The notes under the pieces: generated by a model
The model's database searches: none
Told to the model about the DNA's origin: nothing
Seen by the model: only the letters and a program-made list of their open reading frames with translations
Translations under genes and position numbers: made by a program
Assembly (NCBI GenBank): GCA_009733745.1
Contig: WNWL01000004.1
Coordinates: forward strand, 1-64,000
Direction of reading: 5' to 3'
Origin: Oceanobacillus sp. HTM 045
GTDB taxonomy: Bacteria; Pseudomonadota; Alphaproteobacteria; Rhodobacterales; Rhodobacteraceae
DNA length: 64,000 nt
Shown: positions 22,337 to 26,145 of the stretch, in pieces
How the letters are laid out: every line of letters starts with the position of its first letter
Numbering within the stretch: the first letter of the stretch is position 1

Positions 22337-23332
22337 TCAGGCCAGCGCCGGTTCCTCGTGGGTGATGCAGTGGATGCCGCCGCCGCCGATGGCGATGTCG
22401 GGGACCATCACCTGCACCACCTCGCGGCCGGGGAAGGTGTCCTCCAGCAGGTCGCGGGTGCGGGCGTCGGCCTCGATGCCGTAGGCGGGGGCGATCACCG
22501 CGCCGTTGCAGATGTAGAAGTTGACATAGGCCGTGCAGAACCGCTCGCCGGAGGGGTCCGCCGCGGAGGCGGGTTCGATCGGGATCAGTTCGATGGGGCG
22601 GCCCTTCGCGTCGGTCTGCCCTTCGAGGGCGGCGCGGTTGGCGTGGAGCGCGTCGGCCCAGGGGATCGGGTCGCGCCCGGGCGTCTCGATCATCACCCGT
22701 CCCGGCCCGGCGAAGACGGCGATGCCGTCGACATGACCGTCAGTTTCCTCCTCGTCCCAGTCGCCGGGGAGCCAGATGACCTTCTCGACGCCGAGCAGCC
22801 GGGTCAGTTCCGCGTCGATCTCGTCGCGCGACCAGCCGGGGTTGCGGTTGGGGTTCATCAGGCAGCTTTCGGTGACCAGCAGCGTGCCCTCGCCATCGGT
22901 GGAGAGGCCGCCGCCCTCGAAGGTCAGGTCGCTGCTGGCGGTCTGGAGCCCGAGATGCGCGGCGATGCGGCGGCCCATCTCGGCGTCGTCCGCATGGGGT
23001 TCGTACTTGCCGCCCCAGGCGTTGAAGGTGAAGCAGGACGCCTTTAGCGCGCCGTCCTCGATCACGAAGCTGGGCGCGGTGTCGCGGGTCCAGCTGTCGT
23101 CGATCGGCATCTCGACGACCTCGATATCGCTGCCGAGCCGGTCGCGGGCCGCTCCCGCCGCGAAGGGCGGGGCGAGCATCGTCACCGGCTCGAACCGGGC
23201 GATGGCATGGGCGACCTCCACGAAGGCCGCCTGCGCGGCGGGGAGGCCGCGGAACCAGATCTCCTCCCGGCATGGCCACGCCATCCAGGTGCGGGCGTGG
23301 GGCTCCCACTCCGCCGGAAGGCGTCGGCTCAT
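22337..23332 (-). CDS. Agmatine deiminase / Porphyromonas-type peptidylarginine deiminase family enzyme (331 aa)
   Basis: MSRRLPAEWEPHARTWMAWP...DDSWTRDTAPSFV...GGGIHCITHEEP, the guanidino-group modifying enzyme fold with C-terminal catalytic Cys. The track ORF 22337..25165 is a huge Arg-rich over-extension. Confidence 0.85.
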   Translation of the reverse strand: MSRRLPAEWEPHARTWMAWPCREEIWFRGLPAAQAAFVEVAHAIARFEPVTMLAPPFAAGAARDRLGSDIEVVEMPIDDSWTRDTAPSFVIEDGALKASCFTFNAWGGKYEPHADDAEMGRRIAAHLGLQTASSDLTFEGGGLSTDGEGTLLVTESCLMNPNRNPGWSRDEIDAELTRLLGVEKVIWLPGDWDEEETDGHVDGIAVFAGPGRVMIETPGRDPIPWADALHANRAALEGQTDAKGRPIELIPIEPASAADPSGERFCTAYVNFYICNGAVIAPAYGIEADARTRDLLEDTFPGREVVQVMVPDIAIGGGGIHCITHEEPALA

Positions 23333-23523
23333 ACGGGTTTGACGGCGACCAGCACCACGCCGAGCTTCTGCTCCAGCGCCTCCACGCGGGAGAGCGCCTC
23401 GCCGTCGAGCTCCGCCGGCGGGGTGGGGACCTCGCGCATGGCGACCAGCGGCGTGTCGATCTCGGATTCGAGCTGGCGGATGGCGTCGAGTGCGGTGTCG
23501 TCGAGTTTCGGGCAGAGATACAT
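23329..23523 (-). CDS. Small acidic hypothetical protein (64 aa)
   Basis: MYLCPKLDDTALDAIRQLESEIDTPLVAMREVPTPPAELDGEALSRVEALEQKLGVVLVAVKPV. Strong RBS GAGGAGGA 6 nt upstream of the ATG at 23523. Its TGA overlaps the ATG of the deiminase gene (ATGA). Confidence 0.5.
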   Translation of the reverse strand: MYLCPKLDDTALDAIRQLESEIDTPLVAMREVPTPPAELDGEALSRVEALEQKLGVVLVAVKPV

Positions 23524-23592
23524 CGGCGGTCCTCCTCGGATGGGCGGGTGTGGTGAGCGGGAGTATAGCGCGGTTGGAGCGAAAGTCGCCGG

Positions 23593-24675
23593 TCAGCGCG
23601 CCGCCATCCGCACCGGTTGGCGCTTGCGGCCCCACTGGCCCGGCGCGCCGTCGATCACGCCGGGGAACCGCTCGCCGCATTCCATGCAATGGCCATCGGC
23701 GGTGAGGCGCCAGTCGGACAGTTCGTACCAGTCCCGCCCGATCACCATCGCGCCGCAGCCCGCGCAGTAGGAGGACTGCGCCGTCTCGTGGTGGATGTTG
23801 CCGACATAAACATGGCGGAGCCCGGCGCGCTTCGCGATGTCCCGCGCGCGGAGCAGGGTTTCCGGGGGGGTGCGGGGCTTGTCGAGCATCCGGAAGTCGG
23901 GGTGGAAGGCGGAGAAGTGGAGCGGCACGTCCGGACCGAGGCGGGAGCCGACCCATTCGGCGAGGCGGGCGATCTCCGCCGCGCTGTCGTTCTCGCCGGG
24001 GATCAGCAGGGTGGTGATCTCGGTCCAGACCCGTGTCCGGTGGACGAGGTATTCCAGCGTCTCCAGCACCGGGGCGAGATGGGCGCCGGTGAGCTTCCAG
24101 TAGAACTCCTCGGTGAAGGCCTTGAGATCGACATTCGCGGCGTCCATCACCCCGAAGAACTCCTCGCGCGGCTCCTCGCAGATATAGCCCGCCGTCACGG
24201 CGACCGACTTCACGCCGGCGGCACGGCAGGCGCGGGCCACATCCACCGCGTATTCGAGGAAGATCACCGGGTCGTTGTAGGTATAGGCCACCGACCGCGC
24301 GCCGAGTTCGAGCGCCGCGCGGGCCAGCGCCTCGGGCGGGGCGGCGTCGGCCAGCGTGTCCATCTCGCGGCTCTTCGACATGTCGTGGTTCTGGCAGAAC
24401 TTGCAGGCGAGGTTGCAGCCCGCCGTGCCGAAGGAGAGGACCGGCGTGCCCGGAAGGAAATGGTTGAGCGGCTTCTTCTCGATCGGGTCGATGCAGAAGC
24501 CGGAGGAGCGCCCGTAGGTCGTCAGCACGATCTCGCCGCCCTGCCGGGCGCGGACGAAGCACATGCCGCGCTGCCCGTCCTTCAGGCGGCAGAAACGCGG
24601 GCAGACCCGGCATTCCACCCGCCCGTCGTCGAGCGGGGCGAAGTAGCGGCCGGGATGGGCGCTTTCGGGGATCAT
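23593..24675 (-). CDS. AmmeMemoRadiSam system radical SAM enzyme (PFL-activase-like)
   Basis: MIPESAHPGRYFAPLDDGRVECRVCPRFCRL...SFGTAGCNLACKFCQNHDMS (CX3CX2C) ...C-terminal CAGCG..CMEC zinc-ribbon-like region. An alternative start lies 36 nt upstream (MTAGGRRCHTRP..). The track ORF 23593..26085 is over-extended. Confidence 0.85.
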   Translation of the reverse strand: MIPESAHPGRYFAPLDDGRVECRVCPRFCRLKDGQRGMCFVRARQGGEIVLTTYGRSSGFCIDPIEKKPLNHFLPGTPVLSFGTAGCNLACKFCQNHDMSKSREMDTLADAAPPEALARAALELGARSVAYTYNDPVIFLEYAVDVARACRAAGVKSVAVTAGYICEEPREEFFGVMDAANVDLKAFTEEFYWKLTGAHLAPVLETLEYLVHRTRVWTEITTLLIPGENDSAAEIARLAEWVGSRLGPDVPLHFSAFHPDFRMLDKPRTPPETLLRARDIAKRAGLRHVYVGNIHHETAQSSYCAGCGAMVIGRDWYELSDWRLTADGHCMECGERFPGVIDGAPGQWGRKRQPVRMAAR

Positions 24676-24786
24676 GGGCCGAGTATGGCACCGTCGGCCG
24701 CCCGCTGTCATGCGGGAAACCCTGAGCAGGCCCGTGCGCAGAACCGGGAATCGCTGTAGTCTCGGCGGCAGAAGCCGGGGGAGCAG

Positions 24787-26145
24787 ATGACCGGAATCCG
24801 GCCAGCCGCCGTGGTGGGCACCTTCTATCCGAACGATGCCGAAAGGCTCGCGGAGACCGTGGACGCGCTGATCGAAAAGGCGCGCCCGCTCGGCCTGCCC
24901 GCGCCCAAGGCGCTGATCCTGCCCCATGCGGGCTATCGCTATTCCGGCGCGGTCGCGGCCGCCGGGGTGGCCGCGCTGCCACCGGATGCGCCGGTGCGCC
25001 GGGTGGTGGTGGCGGGGCCGTCGCATCACTTCGCCTTCCGCGGCGTGGCGGTGCCCGCGGCGGATGCCTTCCGCACGCCGCTTGGCGAGATGCCGGTGGA
25101 CCGCGGCGCGGTGGACCGGCTGGCGCGCGAGGCGGACGTGGTGGTGGACGACGCCCCGCACGCACCGGAGCACGCCATCGAGGTGGAACTGCCCTTCCTC
25201 CAGCGCCAGCTCGGGCCGGTCGAGATCGTGCCGATGGTGGTCGGGGCCATCGAGCCCGCGCGGATGGCGGACCTGCTGGCGACGGTCTGGGGCGGGGAGG
25301 AGACGCTGATCGTCATCTCCACCGACCTCTCGCATTTCCTCGACGCCGCGGCGGCGGAGGCGCGGGACGGCGCGACCGCGCGCGCGATCGAGCGGGCCGG
25401 GACCGGCATGGGCCCGGAGGATGCCTGCGGCGCGCGGGCGCTGGCCGGCTTCCTTCACGCCGCCAACGCGCGCGGGATGCGGATCACCCGCCTCGGCCTG
25501 ACCCATTCCGGCAAGGTGGCGGGCGACATGAGCCGGGTGGTCGGCTACGGCGCGTGGATGGCGCAGGAGCAGGACGCGGCCCGCCTGCCGGATGCCGACC
25601 GCGAAGCGGCGCTGCGCCTCTCGCGCCTCGTGCTCAGGAGCCGGGCGCGCAAGGGCAAGGCGCCGGAGGTCGCGACGGGGAGCTTCGCGCTGCCGCTGCA
25701 GGGCATGGGCGCGAGCTTCGTGACGCTGACGCGGGGCGGCAACCTGCGCGGCTGCATCGGCACGCTGGAGGCGGCGCGCCCGCTGGCAGAGGACATCGCG
25801 CAGAACACGGTCCGCTCGGGCTTCGGCGACCCGCGGTTCAAGCCGCTGACCGAGGACGAGATCGACGGGCTGGAGATGGAGATCGCGATTCTCGGCGCCC
25901 CCGCCGAGATGGCCTTCGGCAGCGAGGCGGAACTGCTCGCGATGCTGCGGCCCGGCGAGGACGGGCTGATCCTGGAGGACGGCGGCGCGCGCGGCACCTT
26001 CCTGCCCAAGGTGTGGGACGCGCTGACGACGCCGGAGCAGTTCCTCTCGCAACTCAAGGTCAAGGCGGGGTTGGCGCGCGACCACTGGAGCGGCACGGTC
26101 CGGGTGTGGCGCTACACGACCGAGAGTTTCTCCGGCCCGGCCTGA
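24787..26145 (+). CDS. Fused Memo-like (AmmeMemoRadiSam protein B) / AMMECR1 (protein A) protein, 452 aa
   Basis: N-terminal half ALILPHAGYRYSG...GPSHHF...VISTDLSHF is the MEMO1 family. C-terminal half GASFVTLTRGGNLRGCIGTLEA..GTFLPKVW is the AMMECR1 signature. GGGGGAG RBS. Divergently transcribed from the rSAM gene, 110 bp apart. Confidence 0.85.
   Translation: MTGIRPAAVVGTFYPNDAERLAETVDALIEKARPLGLPAPKALILPHAGYRYSGAVAAAGVAALPPDAPVRRVVVAGPSHHFAFRGVAVPAADAFRTPLGEMPVDRGAVDRLAREADVVVDDAPHAPEHAIEVELPFLQRQLGPVEIVPMVVGAIEPARMADLLATVWGGEETLIVISTDLSHFLDAAAAEARDGATARAIERAGTGMGPEDACGARALAGFLHAANARGMRITRLGLTHSGKVAGDMSRVVGYGAWMAQEQDAARLPDADREAALRLSRLVLRSRARKGKAPEVATGSFALPLQGMGASFVTLTRGGNLRGCIGTLEAARPLAEDIAQNTVRSGFGDPRFKPLTEDEIDGLEMEIAILGAPAEMAFGSEAELLAMLRPGEDGLILEDGGARGTFLPKVWDALTTPEQFLSQLKVKAGLARDHWSGTVRVWRYTTESFSGPA

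Follow-up and report, generated by a model that had tools for sequence, protein, structure and literature searches.

The 64,000-nucleotide stretch analysed here (contig WNWL01000004.1, hereafter the window, with an overall G+C content of about 70%) carries four neighbouring genes that encode a radical S-adenosylmethionine (SAM) enzyme, a fused Memo-AMMECR1 protein, a small acidic protein of 64 residues and an enzyme of the deiminase family PF04371. The first two belong to AmmeMemoRadiSam, a widespread three-protein system in which human MEMO1 and AMMECR1 have their bacterial counterparts. We find it very likely that the four genes form two unrelated units, brought side by side by chance in one alphaproteobacterial lineage: a canonical AmmeMemoRadiSam system, and a lineage-specific pair made of the small protein and an AguA-type deiminase. 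In the first unit, the radical SAM gene would be transcribed divergently from the Memo-AMMECR1 fusion gene. In the second, a folded acidic protein with two repeats would be translationally coupled to a short AguA-type deiminase, and the pair would sit outside AmmeMemoRadiSam, in a variable interval between two conserved anchors, the radical SAM gene and the ClpB gene. We regard the locus as an unremarkable example of a system that is already known.

The locus carries a complete AmmeMemoRadiSam system

An earlier annotation, made from the letters and their open reading frames (ORFs) and called here the sequence-only reading, had placed the four genes at the positions given in Table 1. Our own translations agree with these positions, and an independent NCBI gene call, on a contig of 657,517 bp, gives proteins identical in sequence and length to all four ORFs. 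The spacings proposed in that reading were each off by one base, since the divergent gap measures 111 bp instead of 110 and the gap between the radical SAM gene and the small ORF 69 bp instead of 70. The ATGA overlap by which the small ORF is coupled to the deiminase gene could be read in the sequence as announced, and so could the strong Shine-Dalgarno (SD) sequence of the small ORF, GAGGAGG, placed 6 nucleotides 5' of the ATG. The deiminase gene has no obvious SD of its own.

The same reading had recognized an AmmeMemoRadiSam system with fused Memo and AMMECR1 components, and the family models TIGR04335, TIGR04336 and TIGR04337 bear this out: all three signature components are adjacent, and each one scores above its curated cutoff. 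The radical SAM enzyme matched TIGR04337 with 620.2 bits (cutoff 220) and PF04055 with 68.9 bits, and its translation contains the motif CNLACKFC (CX3CX2C). In the fusion protein, residues 5-257 matched TIGR04336 with 227.5 bits (cutoff 26) and the Memo domain PF01875 with 147.8 bits; residues 275-448 matched TIGR04335 with 175.1 bits (cutoff 99) and the AMMECR1 domain PF01871 with 141.8 bits. The motifs ILPHAGYRYSG, GPSHH, STDLSH and LRGCIG are present in the translation. Judging from what is characteristic of these families, the radical SAM enzyme would cleave SAM at a 4Fe-4S cluster bound by the CX3CX2C motif and produce a 5'-deoxyadenosyl radical, and it would act with the metal-binding Memo domain and the Cys-containing AMMECR1 domain in one pathway on a substrate.

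A scan of GTDB, with one genome per species, gave 581 confirmed relatives of the radical SAM enzyme, of which the best 80 were taken for a survey of their loci (64-80% identity, with flanks of up to 8 kb on each side). Both Memo and AMMECR1 were found by tblastn in 60 of these 80 loci, and the layout counts rest on these 60. Memo followed by AMMECR1, divergent from the radical SAM gene, was observed in 52 of the 60, and the two domains shared a single ORF in 28. The fused divergent layout is thus typical of the clade. The Memo-AMMECR1 fusion is not a novelty either: besides its occurrence in those 28 relatives, it was described in 2007 (PMC2034487). In that work, Balaji and Aravind reported that AMMECR1 is persistently associated with a radical SAM enzyme and with Memo, a ring-opening-dioxygenase-like protein, to which it can also be fused, and they proposed that an uncharacterised modification of RNA bases is involved (PMC2034487). 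A passage of a further paper cites 'Memo-Ammecr1 systems' as described in 2019 (PMC7159879). Our full-text literature search with the term 'AmmeMemoRadiSam' returned incidental annotation mentions only, and no biochemical characterisation. In 2019, Burroughs et al. reportedly connected the system with the modification of nucleotide bases and isoprenoids.

The deiminase and the small ORF are not linked to the system in relatives

The sequence-only reading had gone further and suggested that the deiminase and the small protein may belong functionally to the AmmeMemoRadiSam module. We looked at this linkage from three sides. The 80 radical SAM loci, which extend downstream of the gene by at least 1.5 kb in 71 cases and by at least 3 kb in 61, were screened by tblastn and with a hidden Markov model (HMM) of the small-protein family run on six-frame ORFs. 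In these best 80 of 581 loci, tblastn found no homologue of the deiminase or of the small ORF (0/80), and the HMM found no member of the small family (0/80). The deiminase survey covered 83 loci, namely three genomic contexts and 80 metagenomic loci (45-57% identity), with an upstream reach of at least 300 bp in 75 and of at least 1.5 kb in 57; a radical SAM, Memo or AMMECR1 gene or a small-family member was present in none of the 83. Finally, the small-protein survey comprised 8 distinct genomic contexts, and none of the 8 contained a deiminase gene or a TIGR04337-type radical SAM gene. Because the linkage is not conserved from any of the three sides, a functional link between the pair and AmmeMemoRadiSam is unsupported; the sequence-only reading had itself named such a lack of conservation as contrary to its proposal. 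Had the link held, it would have indicated that a widespread system acts on a guanidino compound or a peptide; as it does not hold, the locus adds just one more instance of this system.

The nearest syntenic relative, L006, gives a closer view of the region. Its Memo-AMMECR1, radical SAM, ClpB and PyrF proteins are 60%, 80%, 85% and 65% identical to those of the window, respectively. Between the radical SAM and ClpB genes, the window contains the small ORF, the deiminase gene, a 255-residue orphan, a fasciclin protein and a DUF1993 protein, and L006 contains a CoxL-like molybdoenzyme and a 2OG-Fe(II) oxygenase instead. In other close relatives, the gene that comes after the radical SAM gene encodes a Mo-cofactor oxidase fragment, a class I/II aminotransferase, an MR/MLE enzyme or an unannotated protein of 397 residues. 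Since the occupants differ in L006 and the gene after the radical SAM gene differs in the other close relatives, the compared sequences indicate that the radical SAM-ClpB interval is a variable region, of which the deiminase pair is one occupant.

Two features of the L006 record itself were noted. It is labelled 'uncultured Bacillaceae' and yet has an alphaproteobacterial-type G+C content of about 70%, which makes the label doubtful. Its Memo-AMMECR1 and ClpB frames (5887-7872 and 13025-15800) are broken by apparent frameshifts, and the assembly quality is doubtful as well.

Table 1. Positions of the genes and intergenic regions discussed in the text (window coordinates).
Feature	Position	Strand	Remarks
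Deiminase (PF04371)	22337-23332	-	331 aa; start overlaps the stop of the small ORF as ATGA
Small ORF, acidic, two internal repeats	23329-23523	-	64 aa; unannotated family of 63-65 aa
Spacer between radical SAM gene and small ORF	23524-23592	-	69 bp; contains the SD GAGGAGG
Radical SAM enzyme	23593-24675	-	360 aa; TIGR04337
Divergent intergenic region, radical SAM / Memo-AMMECR1	24676-24786	.	111 bp
Memo-AMMECR1 fusion	24787-26145	+	452 aa; TIGR04336 and TIGR04335
Agmatinase (context), centre of the separate polyamine cluster	32480-33445	+	NF002564, TIGR01230

The deiminase resembles agmatine deiminases

In the AguA/AguB route, agmatine is converted into N-carbamoylputrescine by the first enzyme and N-carbamoylputrescine into putrescine by the second. 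The deiminase of the window matched PF04371 with 365.6 bits and could be aligned along its full length with the solved structures of agmatine deiminases 2EWO, 1VKP/3H7C and 2JER (214-245 bits), the best matches being 2EWO and 1VKP (240-245 bits). The catalytic motifs DDSWTRD, ETDGHVD and GGGGIHC are in register with those of 2EWO and 1VKP and are invariant in the clade alignment. Around the deiminase genes of relatives, a gene for an AguB-like CN-hydrolase was found in 43 of the 83 loci, and within 300 bp in 32. As judged from these alignments and neighbourhoods, the enzyme is most likely an AguA-type agmatine deiminase whose partner is encoded elsewhere. It would use a Cys/His/Asp site to hydrolyse agmatine to N-carbamoylputrescine, leaving the last step to putrescine to an AguB CN-hydrolase whose gene lies elsewhere.

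A second PF04371 paralogue (38-48% identity) was present in 13 of the 83 deiminase loci, 12 of which also contain a CN-hydrolase gene. These two-deiminase loci are L082, L096, L100, L112, L126, L142, L150, L152, L153, L156, L162, L165 and L169.

The small ORF encodes a protein of an unannotated family, predicted to be folded

The protein encoded by the small ORF is acidic, with 12 D/E against 6 K/R residues. The G+C content at the three codon positions (GC1/2/3) is 0.77/0.39/0.89 for the small ORF, as compared with 0.69/0.51/0.93 for the deiminase gene, and is of coding type. A word-indexed homologue search with the 64-residue protein retrieved the protein itself only. When 1.84 billion representatives were scanned exhaustively with HMMER, 64 relatives were obtained at E <= 1e-3, mostly of 62-66 residues; some relatives have at least three tandem copies of the repeat unit and reach 140-218 residues (for example P0123 and P0137). 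A 40-sequence family alignment shows two repeats with the pattern L..L..I..LE.ELG..LVA, in which E18 and E50 are invariant. The profile built from this alignment recovered 274 clusters, and those that carry a name are all called 'hypothetical protein'. Because its composition is of coding type and the family is conserved, we take the small ORF to be real. The possibility of a spurious call in high-GC DNA was ruled out by the GC3/GC2 pattern together with family conservation.

Taken as a single sequence, the protein shows a marginal internal repeat (10 identities out of 27, equalled by 181 of 5000 shuffles); it is the family alignment and the multi-repeat relatives that support the repeat. The AlphaFold2 model has a predicted local distance difference test score (pLDDT) of 93.5 and shows a compact folded domain, for which no fold match was found in the PDB. 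We conclude that the small ORF is a genuine gene and not an artefact, and that its product is not an unstructured precursor peptide. Searches of the family against Pfam and NCBIfam gave no model match, the only similarities being sub-threshold matches of about 16 residues to the LysR helix-turn-helix. An HTH_1 (LysR) domain was considered and rejected: the matches cover about 16 residues of the 'LE-ELG' motif, and the members of 63-83 residues score below the gathering threshold of 26.6 bits. The one exception is P0123, with six repeats, which exceeds the HTH_1 gathering score (30.8 bits) and whose best stretch still covers only 17 residues.

Across the 8 distinct contexts, the small-family genes are free-standing and have unrelated neighbours, among them TauE with SBP/SLT, DUF815 with an AAA protein, a peptide ABC transporter, MarR with PurA, DAHP synthase with a pyridine-nucleotide disulfide reductase, a glutathione S-transferase (GST) with ArgG, and a CoA-binding protein with an MFS transporter. 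In 4 of the 8 (L084, L086, L172, L176), the small gene has a GST or a glutathione-reductase-like Pyr_redox_2 gene at a distance of up to about 3.5 kb, directly convergent with it in two of the four. This proximity may be due to chance, as GSTs are abundant in these genomes. At L170, a second 64-residue gene is located beside a lysine-2,3-aminomutase-type radical SAM gene, and it proved not to be a member of the family. In P0126 (140 residues), the family part is found downstream of about 20 residues that match the N-terminus of PhnJ (GYNFAYLDE..KRMIRRA); this protein may be a gene-call or assembly chimera. Altogether, the small proteins make up a fairly widespread and unannotated candidate new family that could merit a family entry.

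Observations that favour other explanations

Several observations weigh against two unrelated units. On the minus strand the three genes follow one another closely, first with 69 bp between them and then with a 4-bp overlap, and no terminator-like site was predicted between 22.0 and 26.5 kb. The sequence-only reading had pointed to a terminator between the radical SAM gene and the small ORF as a finding that would contradict its proposal; neither a terminator nor a stable hairpin is predicted there, the fold of the 69-bp spacer being no more stable than those of shuffled sequences (z = +0.64). Co-transcription of the radical SAM gene, the small ORF and the deiminase gene is thus possible on the basis of these predictions. 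Since the deiminase gene lacks an evident SD, its translation in this genome is probably driven by, and dependent on, that of the small ORF. The deiminase also scores below the AguA equivalog cutoffs (303.2 against 381.8 bits for TIGR03380 and 302.3 against 483 bits for NF010070), deviates at 9 of 105 clade-conserved positions, and has no AguB-like gene detectable by tblastn in the 64-kb window. Moreover, its top homologue is only 60% identical, which means that the source genome is without a close sequenced relative; conservation in the immediate lineage could therefore be checked against L006 alone. We note on the other side that operon packing alone is no proof of shared function. As for the 111-bp divergent region, it shows no unusual RNA structure (z = -0.66) and contains on the minus strand a sigma-70-like match at 24711..24682 (9 of 12 positions).

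The deviations of the deiminase are concrete. The residues H325-E326-E327 follow the catalytic C-I-T, at a place where 27-29 of the 29 clade relatives and the solved agmatine deiminases have QQQ, and six more deviations fall at sites that are at least 90% conserved. These differences, together with the scores below the TIGR03380 and NF010070 cutoffs, would suit an enzyme that acts on another guanidino compound and needs no AguB step; so would the fact that no CN-hydrolase gene is found in the 64-kb window, nor in 40 of the 83 relatives' loci (many of which are short), and the presence in the window of an agmatinase route. We nevertheless hold such a change of substrate to be unlikely, because the closest solved relatives are all agmatine deiminases, the alignment with them is full-length and keeps the catalytic and substrate-site motifs, and the dominant neighbour in the clade is AguB-like. 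The sequence-only reading had itself named a bona fide agmatine deiminase with an AguB or carbamoyltransferase partner elsewhere as an outcome contrary to its proposal; here the evidence is by proxy only, from the AguB-like CN-hydrolase that typically partners the clade (43 of 83 loci), and tblastn detected no such partner in the 64-kb window.

The ATGA overlap and the missing SD of the deiminase gene, in addition to the genuine and folded nature of the small protein, might also mean that the latter is a lineage-specific partner of the deiminase (a regulator, an inhibitor or a chaperone), recruited by translational coupling and independent of the radical SAM enzyme. We judge this to be improbable: no family member was seen upstream in the deiminase loci, 75 of which out of 83 have at least 300 bp of upstream sequence, and the small family elsewhere stands alone beside unrelated genes. 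Since the small gene is absent next to the deiminase relatives and its family stands alone elsewhere, a functional pairing of the two proteins would be a one-off.

We give very little chance to an accessory function of the deiminase and the small protein in AmmeMemoRadiSam, for example by way of a guanidino or peptide substrate processed by the deiminase. The tight same-strand order of radical SAM gene, small ORF and deiminase gene without a predicted terminator speaks for such a role, and so does a deiminase that is atypical for AguA, with its sub-cutoff score, HEE in place of QQQ and no AguB in the window. Against it stand the absence of the linkage in all 80 radical SAM, 83 deiminase and 8 small-family loci, the different genes found in the interval of the nearest syntenic genome, L006, and the CN-hydrolase that is the recurrent partner of the deiminase clade. 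A narrower version, in which the two genes were recruited into the radical SAM transcription unit in this lineage and act on or supply the substrate of AmmeMemoRadiSam, has adjacency as its sole support and appears to us hardly more than a long shot; if it were true, this lineage-specific recruitment would be a first chemical handle on the system. A role of the small protein as a peptide on which the radical SAM enzyme acts, comparable to a precursor of ribosomally synthesized and post-translationally modified peptides (RiPPs), is scarcely credible in spite of its position directly 3' of the radical SAM gene and its strong SD, given a predicted compact fold (pLDDT 93.5), a family that is free-standing in 8 other contexts without a TIGR04337 radical SAM gene and has no member in the 80 radical SAM loci, and a radical SAM enzyme that has no SPASM or RiPP-maturase match above noise (sactipeptide maturase, E = 0.0096, 14.8 bits against 625).

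Surroundings of the locus

The agmatine/putrescine cluster that the sequence-only reading had placed about 6 kb away (29.6-34.8 kb) is indeed there. Its agmatinase gene, 9 kb from the deiminase gene, is identified by scores of 419 bits with NF002564 (cutoff 302) and 217.6 bits with TIGR01230 (cutoff 174.3). The cluster consists of genes for a DAO oxidoreductase and a class-III aminotransferase on the minus strand, followed by the agmatinase gene and a glutamine synthetase (GS)-like gene on the plus strand. Four base pairs (33442-33445) are shared by the stop of the agmatinase gene and the start of the GS-like gene, and with 205 bits the GS-like protein stays under the cutoff of 650 bits for gamma-glutamylputrescine synthetase.

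The 255-residue orphan (21449-22216, minus strand) lies 121 bp downstream of the deiminase gene. Its ORF is strongly coding (GC3 0.93) and the product has no match among Pfam, NCBIfam and PDB sequences; a sigma-70-like site is located just upstream of it, at 22289..22261. At 28799-28948 on the minus strand, two tRNA-like genes abut without a spacer (Rfam scores of 55.6 and 46.4 bits): one is a tRNA-Ala(GGC) that apparently has A, not U, before the anticodon, and the other was read by ARAGORN with a 4-base 'gcga' anticodon in an 8-nucleotide loop. A match to the small RNA mmgR (RF00519; 61.7 bits) was found at 9745-9816 on the minus strand, which indicates that the DNA comes from an alphaproteobacterium.

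Comparison with known systems

With the PflA-family activases (TIGR02493), the radical SAM enzyme of the window shares the CX3CX2C radical SAM core and a weak similarity (58 bits). It differs in that its scores with these activases do not exceed 58 bits, against a cutoff of 231.75, and it belongs to the separate family TIGR04337; no glycyl radical enzyme gene was found near it.

The resemblance of the deiminase to the AguA/AguB pathway lies in the PF04371 fold, the full-length similarity and the catalytic motifs, and its relatives at 45-60% identity usually adjoin a CN-hydrolase gene. The differences are a length of 331 residues as opposed to about 365-385, the sub-cutoff score, HEE instead of QQQ, and the window's lack of AguB. 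A coupled small ORF precedes the deiminase gene here, whereas none was seen in the relatives.

The closest counterpart of the locus is AmmeMemoRadiSam as defined in NCBIfam, or the 'Memo-AMMECR1 systems' of Aravind and colleagues, with which it has in common the three components, the divergent layout and the fusion of components B and A. Nothing material sets it apart, its sole peculiarity being the genes downstream of the radical SAM gene, which are variable among relatives. Besides the small-protein family, what is of modest value here is the documentation that a fused Memo-AMMECR1 gene, divergent from the radical SAM gene, is common in this clade.

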